From assembly GCA_963796055.1 (NCBI GenBank), contig CAWCKH010000004.1:1760001-1824000 (forward strand): 64,000 nt of DNA. Direction: 5' to 3'. Below are positions 32,413 through 64,000 of this stretch, piece by piece. Every line of letters begins with the position of its first letter. Position 1 is the stretch's first letter. A program made the translations under genes and the position numbers. This DNA is from an uncultured delta proteobacterium. Its GTDB lineage: Bacteria > Myxococcota > Myxococcia > Myxococcales > Myxococcaceae. The notes beneath the pieces are model-generated. The model was not told the DNA's origin and did no database searches. It saw nothing but the letters and a program-made list of their open reading frames with translations.

Positions 32413-32421
32413 CGGAACACA

Positions 32422-32453: not shown

Positions 32454-32508
32454 CGGCGGCCCGGCCGTCGAGCGTCACCCCGGCGGTTTGCCGGAGGAGG
32501 TGTCCACG

Positions 32509-39527: not shown

Positions 39528-39616
39528 GGCGCCTCCGAACCCGGGTCTACGGCGAGCCTGCCGGAACCGACGTCGGCCGTCGAGCGCCTGTCCCCGGTCG
39601 GCGTGACCGAGGCGCT

Positions 39617-40570
39617 ATGGTGCCGTCCGGTCCGATGCGGGTTCCCGCGGTGAGAGCCGGCGCGCTGCGCGGCGAGGCCTACGGCGTCGTCTTCGAGGTC
39701 CGGGTGGACGACCGCCGGCTCCTGCCCGCGGTGCGTGTGCGCTTCCCCCCGGGCTGGAACGTCAGCCGGCAGAGTCCAGCGGTCGTCCTCTCCCTGGTGC
39801 ACGAGGTGCTGCAGGAGGTGTTTGACACCTCCCCCCGGACGGCGGGGCCGTCGCGGCGGACGGGGGGTTCGCGCGGGAGGTCCCGGCCGGTGGTCGGTCT
39901 GTCCGTGCGAGTGGACGGGCAGCGGGTGGCCCGCGGGTTCAGCCATGCGCAAGCCCTGGACGTGCTCGAGAGCGAGCTGCAGCTCACGGTTGCCCGGCTC
40001 GCCCGCCCCGAGGTGTTCGTCCACGCCGGTGTGGTGGCGGTGGACGGGCGCGCCATCCTGGTTCCGGGGCGCTCCGGTGCGGGGAAGACCACCCTGGTGC
40101 GCGCGCTGGTGGAGGCCGGGGCAACGTACTACTCGGATGAGTACGCGGTGCTCGACCGGGAGGGGCGTGTGCATCCGTACGCGCGCCGTCCGAGCGTCCG
40201 GCGGCGGGCTGGACACAAGGAGCGGCACCCGGTTCCGCGGGTCAGAGGTCGCGGGCCGGTTCCGGTGGGGATGATCGTCGAGACGCGGTACTCGACCGGT
40301 GCCCGCTGGGACCCCGTGTCACTGTCGCCGGGCGAGCGCGTGCTGGCGCTGCTGGCGAACACCGTGCCGGCGCGGGATCGCCCGGCCGAGGTGCTCACCG
40401 TGCTGGCGCGTGCCACCGAGGGGACCCTCGGTGTCCGGAGCGACCGCGGCGCGGCGAAGCAGACTGCCCGGCTGCTCATCGCGCTCGCCCGGAGCTCCGA
40501 TGGGCTGGAGCGCGTCCGTCCGCCGAGACCTGCACCTCGAACTGCCGGAGGGCGGAGTCGCCGGCCCTGA
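39617..40570 (+). CDS. HprK-related P-loop kinase
   Basis: FVHAGVV, GRSGAGKTTL Walker A, YYSDEYAVLD; start 39617 or 39635. Confidence 0.8.
   Translation: MVPSGPMRVPAVRAGALRGEAYGVVFEVRVDDRRLLPAVRVRFPPGWNVSRQSPAVVLSLVHEVLQEVFDTSPRTAGPSRRTGGSRGRSRPVVGLSVRVDGQRVARGFSHAQALDVLESELQLTVARLARPEVFVHAGVVAVDGRAILVPGRSGAGKTTLVRALVEAGATYYSDEYAVLDREGRVHPYARRPSVRRRAGHKERHPVPRVRGRGPVPVGMIVETRYSTGARWDPVSLSPGERVLALLANTVPARDRPAEVLTVLARATEGTLGVRSDRGAAKQTARLLIALARSSDGLERVRPPRPAPRTAGGRSRRP
39814..39832. repeat. single REP-like palindrome inside a CDS
   Basis: GGAGGTGTTTGACACCTCC, matching the first arm of the doublets. Confidence 0.6.
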
Positions 40571-45600: not shown

Positions 45601-45794
45601 AGCTGGCGTTCCACCTCCTCGGCCGGCTGACCCGGGTAGAGGGTGATGACCTGGACCTGCGTCTCGGTGGGATCGGGGAACGCCTCGACGGTCAGGTCGC
45701 GGAACGACAGCCAGCCCCACACCGCGACGATGGCGGTGAGGGAGAGCACCGCCGCCTTGTTCTTGAGCGAGAAGTCGACCAGGTGCTGGAACAC
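42693..45794 (-). CDS. CzcA/CusA family heavy-metal RND transporter
   Basis: EAFPD, GAVDFGVIVDG, EFLPELNEG, RLRPVLMT, GSETQRPLA. Confidence 0.93.
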   Translation of the reverse strand: MFQHLVDFSLKNKAAVLSLTAIVAVWGWLSFRDLTVEAFPDPTETQVQVITLYPGQPAEEVERQLGLPLERALNGIPQLSRLRNLSLFGLSSVTLTFNDGTDGLWARQQVLERLRDADLPDGIVPQLGPYATPIGEVYRYTLVGAGGDPMKLRTLQDWVVRPAFLRVNGVADVVSIGGLQREIHVQPDPSRLAAHGLTLASLEQGIKGGSVNASGGVLERGAEQLVIRSEGLFTSVEDLKAVRLATEGGTPVFLKDVATVTEGWAPRQGVVSRNESMDTVQGVVLMRRGENPSAVLGRIRTAVQDIDRRLAPEGVKLDPFYDRTDLVGTTLRTVGQNLLEGAVLVTLVLFVFLLDLRAALIVATLIPLSLLTSFIYLHLRGMSANLLSMGAVDFGVIVDGGVVIIEAILARMALSRSSAETVEEKIRQATTAVVRPTVFALLIIIAAYLPIFLLQRVEGRIFSPMANTVVSALAGALFFSVTLVPVLAALVWRRPVTHGESPLLSWVARRYEPTLRFCLGRPALLIGAVGVLLAGAALVLPSLGSEFLPELNEGALYMTFTLPANSSLTAGRKLVPRITQLLQGAPPVESVLSQLGRPEDGTDAKLANNLEFFVKLKPPDRWPRQTPTLGGVLDGLQQRIAEIPGIEANFSQPIRDNVNESISGQQGQIAVKLYGDDLAALQTQAEKVKAAIARVPGAADLALVKSASVLQVRVKPNRVALARYGMDLGDFQHVFQTALGGRPVADFWEGERKFDVVLRLPPADRDDVEKIRSLRVPVDGGLTIPLSALAEVETGVGRASINRENGRRYIGIRMNVRGRDMGGFVNEARERAEREAPLGKGMSIEWGGEFENKERAMARLATVVPVALLLTLVLLFKAFDSLPLAVLTLLNVPFALLGGVFGLWAFGFPLSVSAAVGFIALIGQASLNGVLVLSAIAGRRERGESLDEAILAGARERLRPVLMTASLAALGLVPAALSRGIGSETQRPLAVVIVAGTLSACALTLLLLPVMYRIWERLLERSRTAAEPAVGPI

Positions 45795-45798
45795 GGAC

Positions 45799-48274: not shown

Positions 48275-48576
48275 GCGGCGGCACCAGAGCAAGGAGCCTG
48301 CCACCCCGAAATTCAACGGGTTGCCACGGTCCTGGGCGGAGGGATGCCAGTTGCTTGCAGGGGCGGCTGAAGCGGCGTTTCACCGCGAGGCGGGGCGCGA
48401 ATGACAGCGGTGTGGAGCGCCGGGTGCGTCCGGCTTCCCGTCCCGGGCACCGGATGGCAGCGGCTGTCGGGGGCTGTCTTCCTCGTTCGCGCCGCGCGTC
48501 CGCGGGGTGCGGTCAATACCGTTCGCGAGCCCTCGTTGCTCTGGCTGCCAGGCGGGCTGGAGCGTAACCTCGGCGC

Positions 48577-49029
48577 ATGGCCTCATCCCTGGGCTTCGTT
48601 CCGCGGCGGCGGCCGAGCGGACTGGTCAGCGAGCACCTCGACGGTGAGGTGCTGCTGTATGTCGAGGCGACGCACAAGGCGTTCTGTCTCAACCCGGCGG
48701 CGTCGCGGGTCTGGGAGTCGATCGACGGAGCGCGGGACGTCTCGGGCATCGCCCTGCGCACCGCGCTCGATCCGGAGCTGGTCGGCGGCACGCTGCGGGA
48801 GATGGGCGAGGCGGGGCTGCTGGAGGAGGTGCCGGAGCTCCCGGGCGTGGATCTGTCGCGGCGGCGGCTCGTGCGCGCGGGGCTGGTGGCGATCCCGTTC
48901 ATCCTCGCGATCACCGTGCCCCGCGCGGCGGAGGCGGCGTCGTGCGTCACCGGCCTGCCCGGTACACCCTGCGATGACACCCACACCTGCTGCGTGGGCA
49001 TCTGCAACGCCGGGTTCTGCAAACAGTGA
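48577..49029 (+). CDS. PqqD/RRE domain fused to Tat-like leader and Cys6 knottin-like core (copy 1)
   Basis: LDGEVLLY...LNPAASRVWESIDG (PqqD), SRRRLVR + hydrophobic + AEA, then C-x8-C-x5-CC-x3-C-x4-C. Confidence 0.8.
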   Translation: MASSLGFVPRRRPSGLVSEHLDGEVLLYVEATHKAFCLNPAASRVWESIDGARDVSGIALRTALDPELVGGTLREMGEAGLLEEVPELPGVDLSRRRLVRAGLVAIPFILAITVPRAAEAASCVTGLPGTPCDDTHTCCVGICNAGFCKQ

Positions 49030-50117
49030 AACTGGACGAGGCACTGGCGCTGGCGATCGCCGGCGCGCTGCGAAGAGCCTGGGCTGACCCCGGTCCACCC
49101 CGCGTGCCGGCGGTGGACGTTCGACGCTGGGCCGAGCGCTTGGTCGAGGGTGGTGTCGCAGGGCTCGCGTGGTGGCGCATCAAGAACACCGAGATGGGGA
49201 CGCTCGCCCAGCTCTTACCGCTGCGCGCAGCGTTTCAGCACCACGCCCTGACGGCGGCCAGGCAGGAACGCGATCTTCCGCATCTTCTGGCTCACTTCAA
49301 TGCCGAAGGGATCGAGCCGATCCTGTTCAAGGGGTGGACCCTCGCGCGACTCTATCCGCACCGCGCGCTCCGTCCGTTCGGTGACTTCGACCTGCTGGTG
49401 CGGGAGTCCGAGGTCGATCGGGCCCGCACGGTTCTGCGCTCCCTCGGACCGGACCTTCAGTCGCGGGCCGATGTAGACACCGCGCGGACGCTGGCGCGCT
49501 ACCTGCCTGATCGAACGGAGGCCGAACTCTTCGGCCGTGCCCGCTCGGAGACGGCCGGTGGTGCTCGGCTCAGGACGCTCGCCGCCGAGGACCACCTCCG
49601 TCTGGTGACGCTGCACCAGCTTCATCACGGGGCCTGGCGGCCGCTGTGGCTGTGTGACGTGGCGTTGTTGCTCGAGGCGCTCCCAGCGGAGTTTTCCTGG
49701 GAGCGGTGCCTCGCAGGCGATCCACGGCTGAGTGAGGGTGTACTGGTCAGCGTGGCGCTCGCGCACGAGTTGCTCGGAGCGACCATTCCGCGCGGAGTGC
49801 CGCAGGTGGCGGTCCCCCGCTGGCTCCGACGTGCGGTGTTCCACGGATGGGCGCATGGCTACGAGAGCATGCCCCCGTCGCTGTACGACCTCCGGAAGCT
49901 GGGGTGGCCAGAGGCGGTGACGGCAATCCGCGCGCGGTGGCCGGATCCGGTGAGCGCGACGGTGCATCTTCGCGCTCCGTTCCGAGCCGTGCCGCGTCCC
50001 GTGGTCCAGCTCACGGAGTGCCTGCGCCGGGCGGCGGCTTTCGTCCGGCGTGATTTGCGCTGGCGTGCGGGTCTGGACGCGCAGCTTGCAACTGTCGGCA
50101 AGGGGGTTGTGCCGTGA
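49026..50117 (+). CDS. nucleotidyltransferase family protein (NTP_transf_5-like, copy 1)
   Basis: LFKGWTLARLYP...RPFGDFDLLV, WLCDVA; GTG overlaps the upstream TGA. Confidence 0.85.
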   Translation: MKLDEALALAIAGALRRAWADPGPPRVPAVDVRRWAERLVEGGVAGLAWWRIKNTEMGTLAQLLPLRAAFQHHALTAARQERDLPHLLAHFNAEGIEPILFKGWTLARLYPHRALRPFGDFDLLVRESEVDRARTVLRSLGPDLQSRADVDTARTLARYLPDRTEAELFGRARSETAGGARLRTLAAEDHLRLVTLHQLHHGAWRPLWLCDVALLLEALPAEFSWERCLAGDPRLSEGVLVSVALAHELLGATIPRGVPQVAVPRWLRRAVFHGWAHGYESMPPSLYDLRKLGWPEAVTAIRARWPDPVSATVHLRAPFRAVPRPVVQLTECLRRAAAFVRRDLRWRAGLDAQLATVGKGVVP

Positions 50118-53100
50118 CTGCCTGGAGGGCCCTGAGGGCCGCGCTGCTCATGGTGGCGGCGGCTAGCAGCCCGAGTCTTGCGCAGGTGACCTGCCCCATT
50201 GGGGCGAGCACGTGGCTGGACGGCGCGGGCTCGTGGGTGACCGGAACGAACTGGAATCCGACGGGGGTGCCAGCCCCGAGCGCCGATGTCTGCTTCGATA
50301 CTTCCACGGCCAACCCCACGCTCGCGGCCGGGACCACGACGGTGGGGACGCTGAACGTGCTGTCCACGGGGACCCTCACGTTGACCGGTGGCTCTCTCCG
50401 CAACTTCACGATCAACGGCGGGATCAATGCCGATGGTCCGTTCACCTTCAACAGCATCACCAATGTCATTCCCTCGGCGACTCAAAGCTGGGTGATCAAC
50501 GGGTTCGGAAGCACATTCAATTCTCCGCTATCGGTGCCGGTCCTGACTGCCGCGACGACAACGATCAACGTCACCGGGATCGCTGACCTCACTTTCAACG
50601 TGGCCGCCCCTCGGGGATTTCAGGCGTTCAACTGGGGCGCAGGCGTCCTGACCCTGACGACCAATGGGCTTGGATCAGGCACTCCGATCACCTTGAGTGG
50701 CGCGAATGCGGCACTCCTCGTCAGCTCGACGGCTGCACTGACTCTCGACAATCCCGTCATCGCCACTGCCTCCGGAGAGTTGTTGGCAGTGGACGGAGCG
50801 AGCGGTGTTCAGCACGCGCTCGGGCGTGTGACGGTCTCACCAGGCGTGACGCTCCAAGAGTTGCTGGGGGGCACGAACAACGTCAAGCTCCAGCTCGGTG
50901 GTCTCACGCTCGGCGCGGGCTCGACACTCCTGAAGCAGGACTTCGGCGGCATCTATGTCAATGGGAGCGTGTCCGACACGGCGAGCAGCACGCTGACTCT
51001 GTTCATCGGGTTCACGACCCCCACTGGCTCGCAGCTGGACGAGGGGCTGCACTTCCAGTCGAGCACGACGGTCAACTCGATCATCTCCTCCACCGCGAGT
51101 TTGAACTCGGCGATGGTCGGCGCGGACGGGGCCACCACTCTGACCCTCGCCGGTGTGGTCGATGTGGGGAACGCCGGCCGCCTGATCCTCATCCCCCGGG
51201 GCGGGGCCACCATCCTGTTCGGTCCTTCCTCGTTCAATGCACCGGGCAATCCGAACGACATCCAGCTCCGCGGCACCGCTGGCAACACCGTCGAGTTCAC
51301 CAACGCGGCGGTGACCGCGAACGCAGTCACGGTGTACGACGGGCTCAGTTTCCAGACCGACGCCAACCCACCGCCACCGACGGTCACCTTCTCCACCACG
51401 AGCGGAGCGACCTGGCGGGTTCGTAACGCGGCTCAAAGTCTCCCCGGAGCGCTCACGCTCAACGCCGCTGGGACCGTGGACACGGGAACCGATCTGACCA
51501 TCACCGGGGTGCTTGCCGGGTCCGGAGCGCTCACCAAGACGGGTGCTGGTTCGTTGACCCTCGGGCCGGGGACCCATACCCACAACGGTGGAATCACCGT
51601 GAACGCCGGGACGCTCGAGGTGGACGGAACGCTCACTGGTGAGAACACCATCAGCATCAACAACGGTGGTGGGCTCGCAGGTGCCGGGACGCTGCAGTCG
51701 GGCACCGGGCCGATCACCGTGGCAGCGGGCGCGCGCTACACGCCCGGCAGCGGCGGCACCGGAATACTCGCGACCAATGACCTGAGCCTCAGCGACACCT
51801 CGGTGCTGAACTTCACCGTGGGCACACCGACGACTACGGGTTCGGTCACCGGGGCGCTGCTCCTCGACGGCATCCTCAACATCACGCAGGGCCCGGGCTT
51901 CGCCCAGGGCGTGTACACGATCTTCACCGCGACCGCCGCGATCACCAACAACGATCTTCGTCTGGGCACGGTGCCCACCGGTTTCTCCTACGGCTACGCG
52001 GTCAACGGAAACCAGGTCGAGCTGCACGTCGGTCCGCCCCCCACGGCCGTCGAGATGGTGAAGTCCGATGCCGTCAGCGACGGCAGCTCGGCTCAGGTCG
52101 CCTGGGAAGCAGGGACCGAGGTGCGGAATCTCGGCTACCGCGTGTACCGGGAAGAGAACGGCCGTCGTCAAGAGATCAGCGGACTGATCGCCGGCTCATC
52201 GTTACGGGCGGGATTCGACCCCCTCGCCGGCCGCAACTACGGCTTTGTTGACCCGAGCGGATCGTGGGGAGCCCGCTACTGGATCGAGGCCATCGGTCTG
52301 GACGGGAAGAGCCAGTGGTTCGGGCCGGTGAACGCTCGGCGTGGAGACTTGCCCCAGACGCGTGTGCAATCCGCTGCGCTCGTGGCAAAGGTCGGGGCGT
52401 CGGCGCTGGTCGCCTCCGTTGAACGGCCCAGCGCTCGCCAGGTGGACCCACCGGGTGTCGATCGCTCTTGGCGAGATCCGAACCTGAGGCGACAGTGGGA
52501 GATCGCGGCCAGCTCGACTGCGGTGAAGCTCCTCGTCCATCAGGACGGCGTGTACCGGGTCAGCGCAGACCAGCTCGTCCAGGCCGGCCTTCCTGCGGGG
52601 ACTCCGCTCGGCTCGCTGAGGCTCTGGTCGGGCGGTAGCCCCGTCGCGTTCCGCGTGGTCGGGAATGCTGTCGAATTCTTCGGGCAGGCCGCGGACACCC
52701 GGTACACCGACACCCGGGTGTACTGGCTCACCACTGGGCTGGGCCAACCGATCTCGATCAAGGCGGCTCCGACGGCGAACGCCACGGGCGCAGCCGGCAG
52801 CTTCCTCGAAACGCTCGAGATTCGCGACCGTACGCTGTACCTCGCGGCACTCCTGAACGCAGAGACGGATGGCTTCTTCGGGGAACCGCTCATCGGAACG
52901 AGCCCGATGGAGCGCGTGTTCTCCACTCCTGCGCTGGCGGTGGTGGCGAGCGACCCCGCCGTGCTGGAGGTGAGCGTCCAGGGGCTCACCAACGGTAACC
53001 ACACGATCGACGTCACCGTGAACGGGCTCGTCGTGGGGACCGTCCACAGTGTGTTCCAGGACGTGGCGAAGGCCCGCTTCATGGTTCCGCCTGGGCTGCT

Positions 53101-54598
53101 GGTGGCGGGAGACAACAAGGTCACCCTGGTTGGGCGCACTAGCTCCGAGATCGCGATCGAGATCTCGCAGCGGCTCACCTACCCACGTCAGTACATTTTG
53201 GGTGGCCCGCTCCGTTTCACGGCTCCGACTGGATTGGCGCTGACGCTCGCCGGCGCGGACGCATCCACTCACGTCCTCGACATCACCAACGTCCTCTCCC
53301 CTGCGGCCGTCGCGCTCACCAGCACTTCGGGAGGGGCGCGTCTGATCGCTAGTGGCTCGGGTACACGCATCCTCTACGCCTACCGCGATTCCGACGTGCG
53401 CTCTCCCGCCTGGGTGCAGAACGTCTCGAGTGCCTGGCACAACTCCAGCGGCGCCGATCTGGTCATCATCGGTCAGCGGGATCTCCTACCGAGCCTCCGT
53501 CCGCTCGCGGAACAGCGGGCGAGTGAGGGCTTGAAGGTCGCGCTGGTCGACGTCACTGACGTGTACGACGAATTCTCTGCGGGCGAGAAGGATGCGATGG
53601 CCATCCGCGCATTCCTCTCGGCGGCGATGGAGCGGTGGTCGACGCCGCCCCGCTTCGTGCTTCTCGTCGGATCGGCCACCTTCGATCCGCGCGGCTGGCT
53701 CGGACAGCCGGAGCTCGACCAGGTCCCGACGGTGCTGGTGCAGACTCGCTACCTCGAGACGGCATCGGATGACGCACTCGTCACCTTCCACGGCACCGTC
53801 CCTGACTTGGCGATCGGGCGGCTACCGCTCTCCACGCCAGCGGCGATGGAAGCGGCTGTGGCAAAGATCGTCGGGCGCAAGCTGGCGGGCGGCGAGGACA
53901 CGCTGCTCCTGATACGCGATCGGGACGGCACCATCTCGTTCTCCGCAGCCTCAGCCGAGGTGCGGGCTGCAGTCTCAAGCTGGAAGGCGCAGGACTTCCC
54001 ACGCGGCGCCGATGACGCCGCTACTCATTCCGCCCTGCTTGACGCACTTCGCAGTGGTCCGATCGCCGTCGACTACCAGGGTCACGGAGCGGAGGACTTC
54101 TGGGCCGGACGGATATTGGCGTCCACGGATGCCGATGCTCTGGCCGGTGCCGGCACGAGTTCGCTCGTGGTCGCCGCCACGTGTCTGAACGCGTACTTCC
54201 TGGACATCGGTCGCGAGAGCTTGGGCGCCGCGATGCTCAGGACCCCAGAAGGCGGCGCCTGGGGCGTCTGGGCGTCCTCCGCCCTGACACTTCCAACCGA
54301 CCACGCGCTGCTGAGCAAAACGCTGCTCTCCGCGGTGCTGAACGACGGGATGACGCTCGGGGAGGCGACCCTCAAGGCCAAGCAGGCGGTGAGTGATCTC
54401 GACGTTCGTGCCACCTTCCACCTCCTCGGCGACCCGAGCGCCCGGGCCGTGGCCACGCGGAGCTCTGCACTCACGATCTCGAAGCCGAAGAGCTCCTCGG
54501 CCGGCGGCTGCAATACCCCGGGTGGTCCGCTCTCGGCGCTGGCGCCGCTGGTCTTGGCCGTCCTGGCGCTCTCGCTCCGCCGCCGCTCGGTCTCCTGA
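50114..54598 (+). CDS. large surface protein: beta-strand passenger + C25 (gingipain-like) cysteine peptidase + MYXO-CTERM-like anchor (copy 1)
   Basis: Signal peptide, LTKTGAGSLTL repeat, DVYDEFSAG, RFVLLVGSATFDPR, IGRLP, YQGHG, ATCLN, LLGDPS; GGC...TM...RRR tail. Confidence 0.88.
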   Translation: MTAWRALRAALLMVAAASSPSLAQVTCPIGASTWLDGAGSWVTGTNWNPTGVPAPSADVCFDTSTANPTLAAGTTTVGTLNVLSTGTLTLTGGSLRNFTINGGINADGPFTFNSITNVIPSATQSWVINGFGSTFNSPLSVPVLTAATTTINVTGIADLTFNVAAPRGFQAFNWGAGVLTLTTNGLGSGTPITLSGANAALLVSSTAALTLDNPVIATASGELLAVDGASGVQHALGRVTVSPGVTLQELLGGTNNVKLQLGGLTLGAGSTLLKQDFGGIYVNGSVSDTASSTLTLFIGFTTPTGSQLDEGLHFQSSTTVNSIISSTASLNSAMVGADGATTLTLAGVVDVGNAGRLILIPRGGATILFGPSSFNAPGNPNDIQLRGTAGNTVEFTNAAVTANAVTVYDGLSFQTDANPPPPTVTFSTTSGATWRVRNAAQSLPGALTLNAAGTVDTGTDLTITGVLAGSGALTKTGAGSLTLGPGTHTHNGGITVNAGTLEVDGTLTGENTISINNGGGLAGAGTLQSGTGPITVAAGARYTPGSGGTGILATNDLSLSDTSVLNFTVGTPTTTGSVTGALLLDGILNITQGPGFAQGVYTIFTATAAITNNDLRLGTVPTGFSYGYAVNGNQVELHVGPPPTAVEMVKSDAVSDGSSAQVAWEAGTEVRNLGYRVYREENGRRQEISGLIAGSSLRAGFDPLAGRNYGFVDPSGSWGARYWIEAIGLDGKSQWFGPVNARRGDLPQTRVQSAALVAKVGASALVASVERPSARQVDPPGVDRSWRDPNLRRQWEIAASSTAVKLLVHQDGVYRVSADQLVQAGLPAGTPLGSLRLWSGGSPVAFRVVGNAVEFFGQAADTRYTDTRVYWLTTGLGQPISIKAAPTANATGAAGSFLETLEIRDRTLYLAALLNAETDGFFGEPLIGTSPMERVFSTPALAVVASDPAVLEVSVQGLTNGNHTIDVTVNGLVVGTVHSVFQDVAKARFMVPPGLLVAGDNKVTLVGRTSSEIAIEISQRLTYPRQYILGGPLRFTAPTGLALTLAGADASTHVLDITNVLSPAAVALTSTSGGARLIASGSGTRILYAYRDSDVRSPAWVQNVSSAWHNSSGADLVIIGQRDLLPSLRPLAEQRASEGLKVALVDVTDVYDEFSAGEKDAMAIRAFLSAAMERWSTPPRFVLLVGSATFDPRGWLGQPELDQVPTVLVQTRYLETASDDALVTFHGTVPDLAIGRLPLSTPAAMEAAVAKIVGRKLAGGEDTLLLIRDRDGTISFSAASAEVRAAVSSWKAQDFPRGADDAATHSALLDALRSGPIAVDYQGHGAEDFWAGRILASTDADALAGAGTSSLVVAATCLNAYFLDIGRESLGAAMLRTPEGGAWGVWASSALTLPTDHALLSKTLLSAVLNDGMTLGEATLKAKQAVSDLDVRATFHLLGDPSARAVATRSSALTISKPKSSSAGGCNTPGGPLSALAPLVLAVLALSLRRRSVS

Positions 54599-54823
54599 GG
54601 CCGGACGTTGTGAACCGGCGCGCTCTGCGCCGTGGGTCACCACCGACTTGGTGGCCCGCGCCGACCCCGCATCCCACCTCTGCGGGGAATGTCGGACCGC
54701 GTCGGCAAACTACCGACTGAACTTCGAGCTCTCTCCATGTCGTCGACGCGCAGAGGCGCTTTCTCGACGGAGCGTCGGAGTGTCTGCGAGGATGCGGGCA
54801 TCGATTCTGCACCCTGACCCTTG

Positions 54824-55279
54824 ATGCCGAACCGACCCAAGGCCCGGACGGACCAGCTCCTCGTCCAGAGAACTGGACAGGACACCCTGGTCTACGACGA
54901 GCGGACCCACCGGGCGCACTCCCTCGATGCGAGGGCGGCACGGGTGTGGGAGCTCTGCGACGGCGCACGGACCGAGCCCGAGATCGCGCAGGCTTACGGC
55001 GAGGGCGCAGCAGGCGAGGCGGTGGTGAGCTGGACGCTGGCAGCGCTTGAGAAATCCGCGCTCCTCGAGGACGACAGCGGAGTGGAGGCGCGGGCGGCAC
55101 TGAGCCGGCGGGCGCTGATGAGGACCGTCGGGCTCGCGGCGATCCCGGTCATCATGGCGATCACCGCTCCGCGGGCGCGGGCGGCCGTGTCGAGTTGCTC
55201 GAACGGTGGGCAGCAGTGCTCGACGAAGCCGTGCTGCCCCATGTTGACCTGTGACACCCAGACCTTCACCTGTCAGTGA
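54824..55279 (+). CDS. PqqD/RRE domain fused to Tat-like leader and Cys6 knottin-like core (copy 2)
   Basis: DTLVYD...HSLDARAARVWELCDG, SRRALMR + hydrophobic + ARA, then C-x6-C-x4-CC-x4-C-x6-C. Confidence 0.8.
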   Translation: MPNRPKARTDQLLVQRTGQDTLVYDERTHRAHSLDARAARVWELCDGARTEPEIAQAYGEGAAGEAVVSWTLAALEKSALLEDDSGVEARAALSRRALMRTVGLAAIPVIMAITAPRARAAVSSCSNGGQQCSTKPCCPMLTCDTQTFTCQ

Positions 55280-56280
55280 CCGCGGTGGCACATCCCCTGG
55301 CGATGGCGTTGCGCGACACCTTCCGCACCCAGGCGGTCGGGCCGATGTCGCTCGCCCCTGAGCTCGTCCGCTCTGCCGAAGTGACTGGAGTCGAGGCGCT
55401 GCTGCTGCGGCGTCGAGAGGACGTGCCATCCGGGACGGAGCGCTTCCAGAGTCTGGAGTACCTTCGTCGCGAGCGCTGGCTGGCCTCGGTCTTCACCGCG
55501 CTCGAGTCCCACGGAATCCGGGCGGTCACGTTCAAGGGCTGGGCTCTCGCCCGCCTCTACGGCCGACCCGGGCTGCGGCCGGTCGGCGACGTGGACCTCG
55601 CCGTCCGTCCCGAAGACTTCGGACACGCGCGGACGGTACTCGCCGCCTTCCAGGGCGAGAACGAGGTCGATCTCCAGTCGGACCTCTCGCGGTACCTTCC
55701 TGACCGGAGCCCGGAGGCGCTGCTGACCTGCGCCCAGGCCGTCGAGGTCGCCGGTGGTCACATCCAGGTACTGGGTCCCGCCGACCACCTCCGTCTGGTT
55801 TGTCTCCACCAGCTCCACCACGGATCCTGGCGGCCTCTTTGGCTGTGCGACGTGGCGGTGCTGCTCGAGTCATTGCCGGCGGACTTCTCCTGGGCGGAGT
55901 GCCTTCATGGGAGCCGGCACCTGGGAGAGGGCGTGCTCGCCTGCGTGGGTCTCGCCTGCGAATGGCTGGGCGCAAGACCGACGGTGCCGCCGCCGGAGGC
56001 CGTCGTCCCGGAGTGGTTCCGCCGTGCGGTCGGGAGTGCATGGGACCGGGGCTACCGTCCGTCTCCGGAGCGGCTCGAGGGCATCTCGCTGGCCCGGCTT
56101 CCAGAAGCGCTCAGGGCACGCTGGCCGGATCCACTGTCCTCGACGCTCCATCTGGACGCACCTTTCCACCGGGTACCGAGACTGCCGATCCAGGTTGCGG
56201 AGCTGGTCCGCCGCAGCTCGCGCCACGCCGTCCGCCGGTGGCGGTCGCGCGGAGCGGGGGTGGGAAGGGGGGAGTCGTGA
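55276..56280 (+). CDS. nucleotidyltransferase family protein (copy 2)
   Basis: TFKGWALARLY...RPVGDVDLAV, HLRLVCLHQLHHGSWRPLWLCDVA; paralog of 49026-50117. Confidence 0.85.
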   Translation: MTAVAHPLAMALRDTFRTQAVGPMSLAPELVRSAEVTGVEALLLRRREDVPSGTERFQSLEYLRRERWLASVFTALESHGIRAVTFKGWALARLYGRPGLRPVGDVDLAVRPEDFGHARTVLAAFQGENEVDLQSDLSRYLPDRSPEALLTCAQAVEVAGGHIQVLGPADHLRLVCLHQLHHGSWRPLWLCDVAVLLESLPADFSWAECLHGSRHLGEGVLACVGLACEWLGARPTVPPPEAVVPEWFRRAVGSAWDRGYRPSPERLEGISLARLPEALRARWPDPLSSTLHLDAPFHRVPRLPIQVAELVRRSSRHAVRRWRSRGAGVGRGES

Positions 56281-59200
56281 GAAGACTGATTCCGTTCGCG
56301 TTGCTTGCAGTCGCACTGGCTGCGCCACGGGCGCATGCCGTCGCCAAAACCTGGAACGGCAGCGTCAACATCCAGTGGAACAACGGCGCCAACTGGACGC
56401 CCGCCGGAGTTCCGACCGCCGCGGATGACGTGACGATCAACGTCCCAGGCACGGTCCGGATCTCGAACAATCCGATCGCCGCCGATGCGGTCGCAGCATC
56501 GCTGACCATCGGTGCGGCGGTCACGATGAATCGCGGCAACGGCCACATCCTCACCGTGACCAACGGCATCAATGTCAACTCGACCTCTGACGTGTTGATC
56601 CAGGTGCCGTTCACCGCGGCGAGCCTGAGCAAGAGCGGCACCGGAAATCTGACCCTGAACGGAGCCGCCCTGTCCGGGACGACGCCGCAGGTCAGCGGGA
56701 CGGTCGACGTGACCGGCGGGACACTGACCCTCAACGGCGGGAACGATCTGACCACCGGCGGAGCGGTGAACGTCAGCACGGGCGCGACCCTGGCTCGCAA
56801 CGGTGCCGGCTTCCTGAACGCGGGTGGAGCGGTGACCGTCGATGGAGGAGCGATGACCTTCGCCGCCGGTGGTGGTCTCGCCGCCAGTGCGACGGTCACC
56901 GTCATGGGCGGGGGAACCGTGTCCTTCGCCGGAGGCGGCGGTCTCACCTCGGGCGGCGCGGTGACCGTCACTGGTGGGACGATGAGCTTCGCGGCCGCTG
57001 GTGGTCTCACCTCGGGCGGAGGAGTGAACGTCACCGGCGGAACGATCACCTTCGCTGGCGGTGGCGATCTCGCATCGGCGACTTCGATGGTCACCGTGGG
57101 GGCCGGCGGCACTCTGGCATTTCCCGGCAATGCCAACCTCGGCGCGGGCGACGTGATCGTGAACGGCGGAATCGTCTCCTTTGGCGGGAACGGAGATCTC
57201 ATTGCCACCGGAGGAGTGACGGTGACCGGAGGAGGGAGTCTCTCCTTCGGTGGGAACGGCGACATCACCGCTCAGAGCTTCACGCTGGCCTCGGGCTCGT
57301 CATTCACCTTGAACTTCGCCACCGGTGGCAACCCGACGAACATCAACCTCACCGGCGGGACCGGAGCCCTGGGCGGGACCGTCAACATCACCGGGACTCC
57401 GAACGCAGCCAGCTTCAACATCCTCACCGGTGCGAGCACGGTGGACATCACCGGGGTGATGCTCGGGAGCGCGCCGAGCGGATTGGCGTTCGGGTTCCGC
57501 CCACTGGGAACCAGCACCGTCGTGCTCGACGTGACGGTCAACCCCATCGCTCCGGATGGCACCGCCTCGGCCACTGGAAGCTGCCCGGGACCGATGACCT
57601 GGCAGCACACCATCTCCGCAACCGCCAACGACCGCTACCTGCTGGTCGGAGTGTCGACGGGCACCAGCGCCGTCACCCCGACGGCGGTGAGCTTCGGCGC
57701 CCAGCCAATGGGCCTCATCGCCAGCCGGGTCAATGGCAGCTCGGGCGCGTTCATCTATGGCCTGGTGGCCCCGGGGCGTGGAACGGGGACCATCACCGTC
57801 ACCCTCCCCGCAGGCCCATGCAGCGTGGTCGCCGGCTCGCTCTCGTATACGGGGGTCCTTCAGGCCAGCTCGACGGGCACCGCCGCCACCGCCGCGGGGA
57901 CGGGGACCAGCGCCTCGGCGTCGCCTTCGACCGTCCAGGGGGACAAGGTCATCGCCGTCCTGGCGTCCAACGGGGCCACCTCCGCGACCCCGCAGGCCGG
58001 AGCGACCGTCCGCTGGTCTGCGATCCAGGGCACGGTGCTCGGCGCGGGTGATACCGCGAGCCGCAGCGGGGCAGGCACTTTCAACGTGACCATGAGCTGG
58101 ACCCTGAGCCCGTCGAGCGAGTTCGCGCTCGCGTCGGTCCCCATCCATGCGGCAGCGCCCACTCGGGTGATGGAGATCGCGGCATCGGTTCGGCGCTCGG
58201 GGACGGCCCTGGCGGTGTCCGTGCGGTCTGGGCCCAGGTCGGACCTGGTGGGCTTTCGCGTGTGGCGCGAGGCCGCTGGGCAGCGTGAGCTCCTCACCCC
58301 AGGTCTGGTGGAGGGTCCGGTACTCACCTCACGGGCCAGCCTGCTGGCAGGCTCTGAGAGCGGCTGGGTCGATGCCCGACCCGTCCCCGGTGCGAACTAT
58401 CTGATCGAGGCGCTCCACCTCAACGGTCGGACCACCTGGTCGCGGGCGGCACCTGGCGCGGGTCCGGCTCCCCCCGTGGCCTCGGCTCTGCTGGCGTCGC
58501 CGGCCAGTGCGGTGGTGGTTCACCAGCCCGCGCTTCGCGTGAGCGCCGCCGAGCCCGTGTCTCGCAGATCCGCGCTGGTGATGCAGGGCACCCAGTGGCA
58601 GCTCGCCGCGGACGCCGCGGTGAAGATGAGGGTGTCCACGGCGGGCCTGGTCCGCGTCCCGGCCGAGCTGCTCTTCGCCGCCGGCATTCCCGTCGGTGCC
58701 GCGGCGTCCTCGATCCAGCTGTTCCGCGGTGGGCGCCCAGTCCCCCGGACCGTCGACGCCTCGGACGGCGTTACGCTGCGGAGCGGGGACGCAGTGGAGT
58801 TCTACGGCTACCCGATGGACACGCGCTACTCCGGCTCCGCCGTCTACTGGCTGACCGCAGGCAAGGGTGTGGGCGTGGAGGTCCCGAGCACCGGGTGGAT
58901 CGCGCCGGGCGCGGCCACCCGCTCGTATCTCGCCTCAGCCGAGGTCCGGGAGCGCCTCACCTGGTTTGGCGCCGCAAGAAACGGCGACGCCGAGAAGTTC
59001 TTCGGGCCGGCGGTCCACTCCACCGCCCGGCAGCGGACGATTCCGGTCGACGCCCTTGACGTCTCGGGGGCGGGGGCACGGCTCGAGCTCGCGTTCCAGG
59101 GTTTGACCGAGATCCCCCACGCAGTGTCGGTGAGCGTGAACGGCCTCCCTGTCGCCTCGGTGACCTTCGACGGGAATACACCCCATTCGGCGCTGGTCCC

Positions 59201-60761
59201 TCTTCCGCCGGGGACCTTGGTGGCCGGGGACAACACCGTCGAGCTGGTCGCGCCCGGCTCGGCGGACATCTCGCTCGAGCAGTACGTCCGGCTGGTCTAC
59301 CCGCGCTTCACGGTCCGCGGCTCGGGCGCGCTGGAGTTCACCCTCGCCGGAGGAGCTGCCACCCGCCTGGACGGCTTCGATCCGGGGCTCACCCGCGTGC
59401 TGGACATCACCGACCCGGACGCCCCCGTGCGCCTGACGACCTGGGACGAATCGGGAGCTGCGGCGGTGGCTGCACCAGGGTCGGGTTCCCGGCGGCTCTT
59501 GGCCTATCTCCCGACGGACGTGGCGTCCCCGGTTTCGGTGGTGGCCAATCGTCCCAGCAGCTGGCACTCCGCGGAGGGCGCGGACCTGATCATCGTGGGT
59601 CCGGCCTCGCTCCTCCCGGAGGCGCAGGCGCTGGTCGACGCGCGCAGGGCACAGGGCCTTTCGGTGGCGCTGGTGGATGTCGAGGATGTGCAGGACGAGT
59701 TCGCCTCCGGTGAGAAGAGCGCCGATGCCCTGCGTGGCTTCCTCCAGCAGGCGCTGGGGGCCTGGGCGCGGCCACCGCGCTACATTCTCCTGCTCGGCTC
59801 GGCCACCTATGACCCCCGTGACTACCTCAGGCTGGGCGGAGACCTGGTCCCCAGCGGCACCGTGCAGACCGAAGTGCAGATGAACGGGCAGACCGAGGCG
59901 CTCGAGGCAGCCTCGGACAGTTGGTTCCTGGGCGTCCCGGGTGCGGGGGCCCTTAGCATCGGGCGTCTTCCGGTGAGGACTGCGGAGGAGACCCGGGCAG
60001 TGGTGGCGAAGATCGTCGGGCGGCGGGATGCGGATGCGAAGGCGAACGTCCTGCTGGTCTCCGACCGTGCGGGGACCAGCGACTTCCCGGAGATGAGCGC
60101 CGACCTTCGGGCCGTGCTCCCGGACGCCCAGGCGACGGTGCTGGTGCGGGGGTCGGACACGGACCAGGTGCTGCACCAGCGGATGCTGGAAGCACTCCGG
60201 GCCAGTCCGGCCCTGGTGAACTACATCGGCCACGCCGCGGAGACGTTCTGGAGCGACCCCACCGCCCCCCTCTTCAGCGTCGACGACGTGTCCGCGGTCG
60301 CTGGAAACCAGCCCGGCTTGTGGATCGACATGAGCTGCCTCACCGCGTTCTTCCAGGATCCGCGTCGTCAGAGCCTGGACGTCGCGACCTTGTTGGCCTC
60401 CGAAGGTGGGGCCTGGGGCACCTGGGGCAGCACGGCGAAGACCTACCCGGGCGATCACGCAGGCCTGAATCGGGCGCTGGTGCGCGCGCTGCTGATCGAA
60501 GGGAAGACGCTCGGCGAAGCAACTCGTGACGCTCTCGCCTCCGCCACCGACCCGCAAGTGCAGTCGACGTTCGTGCTGCTCGGCGACCCGAGCGCCCGCG
60601 CCGTGGCCACGGCGGCGCTCGAGGTGGCCCCCCCGAAGCCGTCCGCCTCCTCCGGGTGCAGCGCGACTCCCGCTGGGTCCGGCACCCTGGCGCTCCTTGC
60701 CATCGGCCTCTGGTGGGCCGCGGCGCGACGCCGCGTCCGAGTGGGGGTCCGGCGCGAATAG
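56277..60761 (+). CDS. large surface protein with C25 peptidase and MYXO-CTERM-like anchor (copy 2)
   Basis: GTG start after GGAG, signal peptide ending AHA, Gly-rich repeats, VNYIGHA, MSCLT, LLGDPS, SGCSA...TM...RRR. Confidence 0.88.
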   Translation: MRRLIPFALLAVALAAPRAHAVAKTWNGSVNIQWNNGANWTPAGVPTAADDVTINVPGTVRISNNPIAADAVAASLTIGAAVTMNRGNGHILTVTNGINVNSTSDVLIQVPFTAASLSKSGTGNLTLNGAALSGTTPQVSGTVDVTGGTLTLNGGNDLTTGGAVNVSTGATLARNGAGFLNAGGAVTVDGGAMTFAAGGGLAASATVTVMGGGTVSFAGGGGLTSGGAVTVTGGTMSFAAAGGLTSGGGVNVTGGTITFAGGGDLASATSMVTVGAGGTLAFPGNANLGAGDVIVNGGIVSFGGNGDLIATGGVTVTGGGSLSFGGNGDITAQSFTLASGSSFTLNFATGGNPTNINLTGGTGALGGTVNITGTPNAASFNILTGASTVDITGVMLGSAPSGLAFGFRPLGTSTVVLDVTVNPIAPDGTASATGSCPGPMTWQHTISATANDRYLLVGVSTGTSAVTPTAVSFGAQPMGLIASRVNGSSGAFIYGLVAPGRGTGTITVTLPAGPCSVVAGSLSYTGVLQASSTGTAATAAGTGTSASASPSTVQGDKVIAVLASNGATSATPQAGATVRWSAIQGTVLGAGDTASRSGAGTFNVTMSWTLSPSSEFALASVPIHAAAPTRVMEIAASVRRSGTALAVSVRSGPRSDLVGFRVWREAAGQRELLTPGLVEGPVLTSRASLLAGSESGWVDARPVPGANYLIEALHLNGRTTWSRAAPGAGPAPPVASALLASPASAVVVHQPALRVSAAEPVSRRSALVMQGTQWQLAADAAVKMRVSTAGLVRVPAELLFAAGIPVGAAASSIQLFRGGRPVPRTVDASDGVTLRSGDAVEFYGYPMDTRYSGSAVYWLTAGKGVGVEVPSTGWIAPGAATRSYLASAEVRERLTWFGAARNGDAEKFFGPAVHSTARQRTIPVDALDVSGAGARLELAFQGLTEIPHAVSVSVNGLPVASVTFDGNTPHSALVPLPPGTLVAGDNTVELVAPGSADISLEQYVRLVYPRFTVRGSGALEFTLAGGAATRLDGFDPGLTRVLDITDPDAPVRLTTWDESGAAAVAAPGSGSRRLLAYLPTDVASPVSVVANRPSSWHSAEGADLIIVGPASLLPEAQALVDARRAQGLSVALVDVEDVQDEFASGEKSADALRGFLQQALGAWARPPRYILLLGSATYDPRDYLRLGGDLVPSGTVQTEVQMNGQTEALEAASDSWFLGVPGAGALSIGRLPVRTAEETRAVVAKIVGRRDADAKANVLLVSDRAGTSDFPEMSADLRAVLPDAQATVLVRGSDTDQVLHQRMLEALRASPALVNYIGHAAETFWSDPTAPLFSVDDVSAVAGNQPGLWIDMSCLTAFFQDPRRQSLDVATLLASEGGAWGTWGSTAKTYPGDHAGLNRALVRALLIEGKTLGEATRDALASATDPQVQSTFVLLGDPSARAVATAALEVAPPKPSASSGCSATPAGSGTLALLAIGLWWAAARRRVRVGVRRE
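56700..57290 (+). repeat. intragenic tandem 21-22 aa repeats (beta-helix-like)
   Basis: About eight units like LTSGGAVTVTGGTMSFAAAGG; boundaries approximate. Confidence 0.7.
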
Positions 60762-60905
60762 GTCGATTGACCGGGAAGGATCGCCGTGCTCTCGCGCGCC
60801 CGCCGCGCACACCTCGGTAGGTTCGGAGCGTCGACCGCATCCTCGACCGGGGCAGATCGCCCTGCGAAGATGCAGGGCATCGAACCTGCAAACGGCTCGC
60901 CGCTG

Positions 60906-63900
60906 ATGTGGTCTCGAGACAGGCTCCACCGGCGGTGCGGCAGGAGCGCGGCCCGAAGGCCGAGCGCCCGTCGTCCCACGGCACTGCTCTCGTTGGGGCT
61001 GGCGGCAGCGGTGCTGCTGTCGACGGAGGTCCGAGCCGCCGCGGTGAATTGGCAGGCCGGAAGCGGCGCCTGGAACAACGGTGTCAACTGGTCGACGGGG
61101 ACCGTTCCGACCTCGAACGACGACGTCACCATCAATTCGGCGGTCACCGTCCAGGTGAACAACCAGGGCGGCAACGCGGTCGCCCGCACTCTCACCCTCG
61201 GATCGGGCGCGGCCCTGACCCGGGCGAACGGAAGGACGCTCGCGGTCGGTCAGGGCATCAACGTTGCCTCCGGCAACGCCACCCTGAACATTCCCTTCAC
61301 CGCCGGAACCCTCAGCAACACCGGTACCGGCACCCTGACCGTCGGCCAGTCCGGGACCGTGACCGGCAACGTCGGGGTGAGTGACGGGGGAACCCTCGCT
61401 TTTACCGGAACCGCCACTTTGGGCGCCGGAAGCTTCACCCTCGCATCGGGTTCGGCGCTGACCTTGAACTTCTCGAACACGACCACGGTCGCGCTCCTCA
61501 CCGTCTCGGGCAACGCGACGGTGGCCGGGACGCTGAACCTCACCGGCTCCACCCCCAGCCTCGCCGGAAGCCCGTACCACCTCGTCAGGTCCACCGGCGG
61601 CACGATCGACTTCACCGGGCTCTCGCTTGGCACCGTTCCGGGAGGCCGCACCTTCGGGTTCCGCGTCCTGGGAACCGACCTGGTCATGGATGTCACGCAG
61701 AACCCGATCGCGATCGACTCGGTCACCTCGACCACCGGGACCTGCGCCGCGGGGACAGTCAGCTGGCAGCACACCATCGGCGCCACGGCAAACGACCGGC
61801 TGCTGATCGTCGGTGTCTCGACCGGAAGCAACTCGGGCAGCGCGTTGCCCACCTCGGTGAGGTACGGGACCCAGACCCTGACCGCGCGAGGCGGAGACAA
61901 CGCCGGAACCACGCAGGTGCAGATCTACACGCTGCTCGCGCCTCCGCGGGGGACGAACACGGTGACGCTGACCTTTCCGGGAGGCAGCACCTGCTTCGCG
62001 GTTGCGGGCTCGGTCTCCTACACGGGTGTGAGCCAGTCCAACCCGATCGGCGGAGTGGTCAGCGACACCGAGACCGGGAACACCCCGCTGCTGGCGACCA
62101 TCGACGTGAACGTGCAGCCCCATTACAAGGTGTTCGCCGTCCTCTCCTCGAACACCGCGACGTCGGCCACCCCGGTCCAGTCGAACGTGACGGCGCGCTG
62201 GTCCGCGCTCAACGGGACCGAGTTCGGAACCGCCGAGACCCTGGCCTACGGGGGAAACAACAACACCACCATCACTCTCTCGTACAACATGGGCCCGCCC
62301 AGCTCGACCTTCTGGTCGCTCTCGGCCATGCCGATCCACCCGGCGAATCCAAACGCTGCGGCGCCACCCGCGCCCGTCGTCCGGTGGTCGGCCGGGGGTG
62401 CCGCGCTTTCCTGGAGCCTGGACGCCACCTCGGATGTGGTGGGCTTCCGCGTCTGGAGAGAGGCCGCTGGGCAGCGGGTGCTCCTCACGCCGGGGCTCCT
62501 TGCCGGCCCACTGCTCGCCAGCAGGGCGACATTGCTCGCCGGCTCGCAACCCGGATGGGTCGACCGGAGCCCGGTTCCGAGTGCCACGTACCTGGTCGAG
62601 TCACTGCACCGGGACGGAAGCACCCGCTGGACGCCCGCCGTCGCCGGCTCCGGTACGGCTCCTGCCCTCTCCTCGGAGCTCGTCGCGGTTTCTCCCTCGT
62701 CGCTGCTCCGTGCACTGCCAGGGCTGCGGGTCGAGCCTGCCGACCTTCCGGCGCTACCGCCGCGGCCTGGCTCCCGGGAGCTCCAGTGGGAGCTCGCCGC
62801 GGGCCACGCGGTCAAGCTTGTCGTCTCGCGGCCGGGTGTGGTCCGCGTGTCTGCGGAGTCGCTTTTCGCTGCAGAGATTCCGGTCGGAACTCCGGCTTCC
62901 TCGCTCCAGCTGTTCCGCGAGGGGCGCCCGGTTGGCCGCACCGTGCTCACCACAGACGGAGCAACGCTCCAGCCGGGCGACTCGGTCGAGTTCTACGGTC
63001 ATGGGATGGACACGCGGTACTCGGGCTCGGCGGTCTACTGGCTGACCACCGGAGCCGGACGAGGCAGGGAGATCCCAACGGTGTCGGCGCCGTCGCAGGG
63101 TGTCGACACCGGCTCGTTCATGGCCGCGACCGAGATCCGGGAGCGGTTGACCTGGTTCGGCGCGGCCCGGAACGGAGACGCAGAGAAGTTCTTCGGGCCC
63201 GCCGTGCACAGCCAGGCCCGCACGCGGACGATCTCCGCCGAGGGGCTCGACGTCGCCGGCAGCGGAGCGCAGCTGGAGGTCGCGCTCCAGGGCGTCACCG
63301 AGGTGCCTCACGCGGTCAACGTGAGTCTCAACGGTCTGTCGCTCGGAACCCTCTCGTTCGAGGGCGCGGTGCCCGGGCGGGCGACCTTCGGGGTGCCGCC
63401 TGGAGCGCTCATCCCGGGGGACAACGAGATCGAGCTGGTGGCGCCCGCCGCCTCCGACATCTCCCTGGAAGAGTTCGTCCGGCTGGTCTACCCGCGGCAG
63501 ACGCTCCGGGGCTCGGGTGCGCTGGACTTCAGGCTTCAGGGCGGGAGTGCCACGCTCCTCAAGGGCTTCGACCCCACGCTTACGCGGGTCCTCGATGTGA
63601 CCGACCCGGAGGCCCCCGTGCAGCTCGTCACCTGGGACCTCTCCAGCGACGCGGCGGTCGCGGCCCCCGGCTCGGGCCCTCGGCACCTGCTGGCGTACAT
63701 CCCGGGCGATACCACTCCTCCGGCGTCGGTGCGCGTCAACCATCCGAGCAGCTGGCACGCGGCCGAGGGGGCGGACCTGGTCATCGTCGGTCCGGCCGGG
63801 CTCTTCGGTGCAGTGAAGCCCCTGGTGGAGCGGCGGCAGTCGGAGGGGCTGCGGGTGGCCCTGGTGGACATCGAGGACGTCCAGGACGAGTTCGCCTCCG

Positions 63901-64000
63901 GGGAGAAGAGCGCCGAGGCCTTGCGCCGCTTCCTGGCCCAGGCGCTCGAGGCGTGGACGGTCCCGCCCCGATTTCTGTTGCTGCTCGGCGCTGCCACGTA
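60906..64000 (+). CDS. third large C25 peptidase surface protein, truncated by window end (absent from ORF track)
   Basis: LLSLGLAAAVLLSTEVRAAAVNWQAGSGAWNNGVNWS...; same frame reaches DVQDEFASGEKSA...PPRFLLLLGAAT at the window end; start 60870 or 60906. Confidence 0.85.
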   Translation, partial: MWSRDRLHRRCGRSAARRPSARRPTALLSLGLAAAVLLSTEVRAAAVNWQAGSGAWNNGVNWSTGTVPTSNDDVTINSAVTVQVNNQGGNAVARTLTLGSGAALTRANGRTLAVGQGINVASGNATLNIPFTAGTLSNTGTGTLTVGQSGTVTGNVGVSDGGTLAFTGTATLGAGSFTLASGSALTLNFSNTTTVALLTVSGNATVAGTLNLTGSTPSLAGSPYHLVRSTGGTIDFTGLSLGTVPGGRTFGFRVLGTDLVMDVTQNPIAIDSVTSTTGTCAAGTVSWQHTIGATANDRLLIVGVSTGSNSGSALPTSVRYGTQTLTARGGDNAGTTQVQIYTLLAPPRGTNTVTLTFPGGSTCFAVAGSVSYTGVSQSNPIGGVVSDTETGNTPLLATIDVNVQPHYKVFAVLSSNTATSATPVQSNVTARWSALNGTEFGTAETLAYGGNNNTTITLSYNMGPPSSTFWSLSAMPIHPANPNAAAPPAPVVRWSAGGAALSWSLDATSDVVGFRVWREAAGQRVLLTPGLLAGPLLASRATLLAGSQPGWVDRSPVPSATYLVESLHRDGSTRWTPAVAGSGTAPALSSELVAVSPSSLLRALPGLRVEPADLPALPPRPGSRELQWELAAGHAVKLVVSRPGVVRVSAESLFAAEIPVGTPASSLQLFREGRPVGRTVLTTDGATLQPGDSVEFYGHGMDTRYSGSAVYWLTTGAGRGREIPTVSAPSQGVDTGSFMAATEIRERLTWFGAARNGDAEKFFGPAVHSQARTRTISAEGLDVAGSGAQLEVALQGVTEVPHAVNVSLNGLSLGTLSFEGAVPGRATFGVPPGALIPGDNEIELVAPAASDISLEEFVRLVYPRQTLRGSGALDFRLQGGSATLLKGFDPTLTRVLDVTDPEAPVQLVTWDLSSDAAVAAPGSGPRHLLAYIPGDTTPPASVRVNHPSSWHAAEGADLVIVGPAGLFGAVKPLVERRQSEGLRVALVDIEDVQDEFASGEKSAEALRRFLAQALEAWTVPPRFLLLLGAAT

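Follow-up and report, generated by a model that had tools for sequence, protein, structure and literature searches.

A widespread RiPP-like cassette with a recognition domain inside its precursor adjoins PorU-like C25 proteins in Myxococcota

The window analysed here, a stretch of 64,000 nucleotides from an uncultured member of the Myxococcaceae (assembly GCA_963796055.1, contig CAWCKH010000004.1), carries on its forward strand two copies of a three-gene unit in which a putative precursor of a peptide that is made by ribosomes and modified post-translationally (RiPP) is followed by a nucleotidyltransferase and a large C25 surface protein. In the first copy, the precursor RRE1 (48577..49029) consists of a RiPP recognition element (RRE) at about residues 1–85, a twin-arginine-type leader and a 30-residue core with six cysteines; next come the NTP_transf_5 nucleotidyltransferase NT1 (49026..50117; PF14907, 105.7 bits) and C25a (50114..54598; PF01364, 206 bits). 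The second copy comprises a second fused precursor, RRE2 (54824..55279), NT2 (55276..56280; PF14907, 98.6 bits) and C25b (56277..60761; PF01364, 188.5 bits). A third C25 gene, C25c, has an uncertain start at about 60786 and runs to 64922, past the window end at 64000; its full-length product scores 180.7 bits against PF01364, and it has no precursor of its own. Open reading frames and Pfam thus agree with an earlier, sequence-only reading of this DNA, which had described an RRE/NTP_transf_5/C25 triplet present twice and followed by a third C25 gene. That reading overlooked an HprK-like kinase that belongs to the unit too (39593..40570, forward strand, start codon uncertain; TIGR04352, 64.5 bits, below the cut-off of 200).

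As that reading had it, all four internal junctions of the two triplets are 4-bp GTGA stop/start overlaps, which the coordinates bear out. Short overlaps of this kind are frequent in operons, and they therefore hint at coupling and no more. The paralogues of the two triplets are 40% (RRE), 47% (nucleotidyltransferase) and 41% (C25) identical, and judged from these values the two units are old paralogues. A third fused precursor lies after a fourth C25 gene elsewhere in the same genome (C4:704876-710910, reverse strand; locus L191), again with a GTGA overlap, and the three fused precursors and four C25 genes of the genome are all confined to these two clusters. The fourth C25 carries a glucose/sorbosone-dehydrogenase-type passenger. 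A scan for sigma-70 promoters and terminators was uninformative (0 promoters; 3 terminator-like sites, with 4.9 expected by chance).

The sequence-only reading had also assigned the N-terminal domain of the precursors to the RRE/PqqD fold. RRE2, with 25.2 bits, exceeds the PF05402 cut-off of 23.4, whereas RRE1, with 20.6 bits, falls just below it. An AlphaFold model of RRE2 (99 sequences; pLDDT 84.5) found its best Foldseek matches in the lasso-peptide RREs TbiB1 (E = 1.1e-3, TM by target 0.75) and FusB1-type B1, with TM values of 0.75–0.77 and no match reaching E = 0.001. The assignment to this fold of three strands and three helices is upheld by these results. The model draws residues 110–114 of the leader as a strand. 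Judged from the sequence, the leader may be bound in cis by the precursor's own RRE. A role in pyrroloquinoline quinone biosynthesis was rejected, as the PqqD match is weak and there is no pqq context. Pfam and NCBIfam scans of the unit found no lasso cyclase, B2 protease, radical SAM, YcaO or lanthipeptide enzyme, in line with the earlier reading, and the corresponding RiPP classes were rejected for the unit.

How widespread is such a precursor, and what is conserved in it? A profile built on 16 members matched 4,524 representatives (clusters at 50% identity) at E ≤ 1e-10, some share of which may be plain RREs, and 7,648 at E ≤ 1e-3, which include ordinary PqqD proteins. No NCBIfam model covers the fused precursor (99 members scanned). 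In an alignment of 186 representatives at 60% identity, taken from 478 collected sequences and made without a motif anchor, the most conserved columns are Arg95 (186), Arg96 (184), Pro107 (183), Pro115 (182), Ala120 (155), Ser/Thr122 (181) and Cys123 (163). What the family conserves is thus the two arginines, a pair of prolines and, immediately following an AxA site, a Ser/Thr, with a leader consensus of SRRx..[VIAL]-A-[LIV]-P-x-[VI]..P..AxA-x-[ST]. A gap-free count gives the same picture: Ser/Thr stands at +7 from the second proline in 170 of 181 tails, compared with 750 of 3,784 positions further on, and Ala stands at +5 in 150 of 181. In RRE1, the leader (48856..48936) runs from S-R-R-x-L-V-R through a hydrophobic stretch with Pro107 and Pro115 to A-E-A, a predicted signal peptidase I site, and the predicted core (48937..49026) starts with Ala-Ser-Cys, with Ser122 as the predicted phosphorylation site. 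The predicted core of RRE2 starts with Val-Ser-Ser-Cys and also has six cysteines.

The core itself is far more variable. Both window cores, which the sequence-only reading called knottins, have the C-C-CC-C-C spacing of that fold, and three homologues carry knottin-family Pfam labels (PF07740, PF10530), but within the family this is just one kind of core. Among 180 anchored representatives (6 more are unanchored), 123 cores have six cysteines, 26 have eight, 8 have four and 4 have none; these shares are biased because the profile seeds are Cys-rich. Among the lower-ranked matches of an earlier search, 55 of 81 tails lack any Cys downstream of the RR motif and are Ser/Thr- or Pro-rich. The knottin was consequently rejected as a defining feature, and with it the view that a disulfide-rich core defines the system. 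One family member (P0204) has a methyltransferase domain after the leader in place of a short core. Three to four fused precursors stand in tandem at single metagenome loci (L132, L144, L103/L104), and in one genome (G243) an insertion-sequence-like open reading frame splits the second precursor gene (L064, 10644-12606).

The leader resembles a signal for twin-arginine translocation (Tat): it combines an S-R-R-x-hydrophobic-hydrophobic-K/R motif, an h-region and the AxA site, and TatC is encoded in the genome. When a leader profile was run against the genome, the top two non-family matches and most of the next ones were RR-motif N-termini, although these matches were weak (E 0.66–0.94 and above). 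A search of the same genome for further proteins with an RRE1-type leader returned just the three precursors. Judged from these sequence features, Tat export with the RRE staying in the cytoplasm is fairly probable. Alternatively, the RR-hydrophobic segment might be a membrane anchor or a lipoprotein-type signal, so that the protein would act as a membrane-bound RRE adaptor while the kinase and nucleotidyltransferase work on some other substrate, for instance a sugar or the passenger of C25. The weak support from the Tat model and the Cys that follows the site in 163 of 186 members would fit such an adaptor. However, the segment contains two invariant prolines and polar Thr/Ser and is partly modelled as strand, Ser/Thr is nearly invariant at core position 2, and Cys-free cores exist, all of which makes the adaptor quite improbable.

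Which enzymes would act on the conserved Ser/Thr? The HprK-like kinase is the sole copy in the genome and lies ~8 kb upstream of RRE1, but it stands directly 5' of the RRE gene at another locus of the same genus (L023), as well as in G248, six genomes from a different genus and a plasmid of Gemmatirosa (L060-L066 and L070). Its motifs are intact in all 30 locus copies, and the KG..R..DxD motif of the nucleotidyltransferase, intact in NT1, is retained in all 51 copies that span it. By analogy with the systems discussed below, the cassette's Ser kinase, and its main modifying enzyme, is likely this HprK-like protein. The plasmid locus (Gemmatirosa kalamazoonensis KBS708 plasmid 1, NZ_CP007129.1, 14324-17542) encodes the kinase, a fused precursor, a MauE-family protein, which may help disulfide formation, and a nucleotidyltransferase. 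Between the kinase and RRE1 in the window lie two reverse-strand features: a 601-residue membrane protein with no Pfam match (40652-42457), which is kept at the same place in two same-genus loci (L021, L030), and a resistance-nodulation-division (RND) efflux set of ACR_tran, HlyD-type and OEP genes (42693-48316). At L060, L062, L063 and L066, another such set is located just upstream of the kinase gene. The RND pump was rejected as a cassette part, being on the opposite strand and missing between kinase and unit in L023. Further upstream, at 32400-36700, is an apparent biotin synthesis set (bioB, bioF, bioA, bioD), judged by eye.

The closest described chemistry is that of the linear polyphosphorylated peptides (LPPs; LppA/K/B/S/D/N; Popov et al. 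2026, PMC13381572), to the extent that the accessible part of that report describes them. Both systems have an RRE, an HprK-like kinase and an NTP transferase with no cyclase, as well as a conserved leader, a variable core, a Ser near the core start and, often, polysaccharide genes close by. In LPP biosynthesis, the HprK-like kinase LppK phosphorylates Ser3 of the core (PMC13381572), and in pseudomycoidin, PsmN is required for the hexose on the phosphate (PMC6993621, available in part). Because of these two precedents, phosphorylation followed by addition of a sugar to the phosphate is, by analogy, probable here. The differences are nevertheless substantial. The LPP RRE is discrete, whereas all three precursors here carry it in one protein with leader and core; the LPP leader is YxxPxVLxHQxIxFETxxS, compared with an RR leader with an AxA site and at most a degenerate xxxPx[VI]; LPP clusters encode a SipW-like peptidase and an MsbA-like exporter, and no such open reading frame occurs in 48577-64922; and the present cassettes have a PorU-like neighbour and are found in Myxococcota, Acidobacteriota and Gemmatimonadota rather than in Bacillota. 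The paeninodin and pseudomycoidin lasso peptides (PsmK, PsmN; PMC6993621) share the kinase and an NTP_transf-type enzyme, PsmN having a DxD pair, but the unit has no macrolactam synthase, B2 protease or ABC exporter, and its target Ser is predicted at core position 2 instead of the C-terminus. The HPr-rel-A and SynChlorMet cassettes (TIGR04352/04353, TIGR04248/04249) are catalogued sets of PqqD and HprK-like proteins with no assigned product; cross-matches to them are weak, their models describe discrete PqqD proteins, and the window proteins fall far below the cut-offs. The cassette thus likely works like the phosphorylated LPP and pseudomycoidin peptides, yet fails the defining features of LPPs.

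The third component is a large protein with a recurrent layout: a signal peptide, a variable passenger, an Ig-like domain opening with a PTAV-like motif, a PorU module and, where the protein does not stop there, a MYXO-CTERM-like tail or SLH domains. C25a has a ~620-residue passenger with a PATR repeat and a MYXO-CTERM-like tail, and the passenger of C25b is unlike it; across the loci, passengers are of the PATR, GSDH, DUF11, S8 or unassigned types. PorU (6ZA2) is the only solved-structure match by sequence (E = 4.4e-10) and the best fold match (E = 2.8e-30, 796 columns, 18% identity), with GHG and TC motifs aligned. The aligned His and Cys, which we take to be PorU's catalytic pair, are intact in C25a, C25b and C25c, in 30 of 30 precursor-linked C25 domains and in 41 of 41 others. 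Against the PorU equivalog model NF033707, two window C25s score 171.7 and 144.4, with a cut-off of 420. By sequence and fold, the window C25s are PorU-like but not PorU by the curated cut-off; they also differ from it in the variable passenger placed in front of the C25 module, in the adjoining peptide-tailoring genes and in having the T9SS (type IX secretion system) tail replaced. Inspection by eye shows MYXO-CTERM-like tails (Gly-Cys, hydrophobic, Arg) in each of the three window proteins; of C25a and C25b, only the latter scored in the TIGR03901 scan, below the cut-off (16.3; cut-off 20), C25a being unlisted at E 0.1.

The sequence-only reading saw in C25 a dedicated anchored protease, a view under which C25 would remove the leader or activate a diffusible disulfide-rich peptide. 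Its family assignment stands, the catalytic residues are intact and the unit has no other peptidase. However, a conserved AxA site of the signal peptidase type already ends the leader, a discrete cassette beside a C25 encodes its own S24/S26-like peptidase (L174), a 1,400-residue protein with a variable passenger fits the task poorly, and the fusion also occurs without a C25, which moreover is not always anchored. A leader protease is therefore very unlikely, and because the likeness to PorU extends over ~800 columns, a transpeptidase is no less likely than a simple dedicated protease.

The question of whether peptide and C25 belong together was approached from both sides. Starting from the precursor, a search of 401 Myxococcota genomes found the fusion in 15 near full-length matches and 1 contig-cut match (E < 1e-19), and 13 of these 16 genomes also have a C25 match; conversely, 63 of 76 C25-positive genomes have no fusion. 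In metagenomes, the best 80 among 467 confirmed loci were scored with our own profiles, many of the contigs being short: a nucleotidyltransferase was present in 40, the kinase in 18 and a C25 in 14. The nucleotidyltransferase lay at most 1.5 kb downstream of the precursor in 30 of 59 loci with room, and a PorU module was found in 9 of 16 loci of at least 12 kb, or 7 of 12 once near-copies were collapsed. Two of the 10 precursors looked up from C25-bearing metagenome loci carry taxon names, Blastocatellia and Pyrinomonadaceae. The C25s thus adjoin the fused precursor in both Myxococcota and Acidobacteriota, and the three families co-occur in other genomes, a second phylum included, in support of the earlier reading. 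ABC transporters are near only a few metagenome loci.

Starting from C25, we examined 40 loci that surround a C25 match in Myxococcota of other genera, hand-chosen for contig room. RRE, kinase or nucleotidyltransferase genes were near 16 of 23 PorU-type loci (13 of 19 genera), compared with 1 of 17 other C25 loci; one of the 16 is a weak match, and related loci are not independent. None of these loci has a fused leader. Instead, the partners are discrete PqqD proteins with radical SAM enzymes, or asparagine-synthase-type enzymes, with short peptides that have YxxP/WxxP leaders. Such peptides lie beside PorU-like C25s at L154-L158, L166, L168, L173, L182, L152 and L190; several end in Gly-Ser, and the cores at L156-L158 start with Ala-Ser-Cys, as in fused precursors. 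In a midpoint-rooted FastTree tree of 71 C25 domains, every cassette-linked domain falls inside one clade of 57 (support 0.911) and the remaining 14 domains include no linked one, while the fused-precursor-linked domains group together (support 0.927) with two that do not adjoin a fused precursor. The precursor–C25 link therefore holds from both search directions and with three precursor types, but it is not obligatory.

Co-location might nonetheless arise if peptide and C25 were independent surface or biofilm-matrix components, co-regulated and often placed by exopolysaccharide genes, with C25 only processing itself or ligating to a glycan. The fusions without a C25 match, in Myxococcota and in Gemmatirosa, and the many C25-positive genomes without a fusion would be expected in this case; moreover, O-antigen ligase, glycosyltransferase, GDP-mannose dehydratase and Wza-type genes flank several loci, and LPP clusters are likewise found in capsule loci. 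On the other hand, the junctions have stop/start overlaps, C25 and precursor were duplicated as a pair, the link is seen again with each of three precursor types yet is limited to one C25 clade, and no polysaccharide genes adjoin the unit in the window. Independence is thus unlikely, and we hold with good confidence, from gene neighbourhood, that peptide and C25 are functionally linked.

Such a link could also take the form of regulation: the precursor would be modified and exported in the same way, and the peptide would then serve as an inhibitor, latency factor or folding partner of C25, with no ligation. The knottin-type six-Cys spacing in the window and the knottin labels would suit an inhibitor, several loci have one precursor per C25 paralogue, and the title of the PorU structure entry contains the word 'latent'. 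However, many cores are Cys-free and Ser/Thr- or Pro-rich, unrelated peptide types adjoin the same C25 clade, and C25c has no precursor of its own. Regulation is decidedly unlikely on this evidence.

Could the peptide instead be the acceptor to which C25 joins its cargo? In the reading that we put forward, the HprK-like kinase would phosphorylate Ser122 just after the leader, and the nucleotidyltransferase would extend the phosphate further while the in-cis RRE grips the leader. Tat would then export the precursor and signal peptidase I would cut it, releasing a core that starts with a small residue. Finally, C25 would release its own passenger by a cut near the Ig-like domain and join it to the free N-terminus of the peptide, which would be a linker in place of anionic lipopolysaccharide (A-LPS), possibly to exopolysaccharide. 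Porphyromonas gingivalis without A-LPS joins its cargo to the N-termini of peptides that begin with a small residue (PMC4560394), and the natural acceptor bears a seryl or glycyl amine (PMC7468200). Ligation of the passenger to the modified peptide was ranked first because of these two precedents, the likeness of C25 to PorU being one of fold and sequence. This last step is the least certain and, taken alone, doubtful. The reading as a whole, a RiPP-like cassette in which a self-RRE precursor is modified, exported and then used as amine acceptor by a PorU-like C25, is tentative, and we consider it possible rather than probable.

Several observations weigh against it. The twin-arginine signal sits after ~90 residues rather than at the N-terminus, a folded domain ahead of a Tat signal is unusual, and the Tat model TIGR01409 matches just 3 of 99 members. 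The Ser- and Cys-containing profile seeds bias the representative set, and peptides of discrete-RRE cassettes do not all have the junction Ser, several of them ending in Gly-Ser instead. The third precursor of the genome has no adjoining nucleotidyltransferase, and the NTP transferase LppN was inactive in the LPP test (PMC13381572, as far as its accessible text goes). No C25 match was found in three of the 16 fusion genomes (G125, which is 99% complete, G228 and G248) or within 15 kb of the Gemmatirosa cassette, and 7 of the 23 PorU-type C25 loci have no cassette gene by our own profiles. The nearest named atlas cluster to the Ig-like domain carries a T9SS tail, but at a score of 0.80 this likeness to T9SS cargo is a lead only, and a search of the genome for free-standing cargo with this domain matched only the four C25s. 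Myxobacterial C25s already own a membrane-anchor-like tail, while the peptide has no evident anchor. Lastly, the support comes from sequence, models and analogy, and the reading would need the peptide to cross the outer membrane.

What the cassette represents is nevertheless a real, widespread and uncharacterised variant of kinase/nucleotidyltransferase RiPP chemistry that is linked to C25 proteins. The sequence-only reading knew of no characterised pathway of this layout, and our targeted literature searches, which covered few subscription papers and did not extend to Figs S6 and S7 of the RRE-Finder supplement, likewise found no description of a system pairing a fused-RRE precursor with a PorU-like C25. 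The only RRE fusions mentioned in the available portion of the RRE-Finder paper are to enzymes (PMC7470986). The placing of the recognition domain inside the precursor, combined with an apparently general export route, is a design that we did not find in the literature searched, and the very large precursor family has no curated model. The LPP report (PMC13381572) describes the biological function of both LPPs and paeninodins as unknown; the tie to PorU-like proteins gives such peptides, and PorU homologues outside Bacteroidota, a concrete and testable role, for which the three-gene unit and one kinase form a compact test system. The pairing of peptide and C25 may represent a means of surface-protein anchoring that has not yet been described. 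More broadly, though this extension is rather speculative and on balance unlikely, the clade of non-T9SS PorU-like proteins might consist of self-acting sortases that join their own passenger, an adhesin or enzyme, to a phosphorylated, sugar-bearing ribosomal peptide, with fused-RRE Tat precursors, radical-SAM peptides and lasso-like peptides as interchangeable acceptors. If so, RiPPs would be covalent linkers between surface proteins and the polysaccharide coat, and orphan PorU homologues and kinase/nucleotidyltransferase RiPP modules would together have a job.

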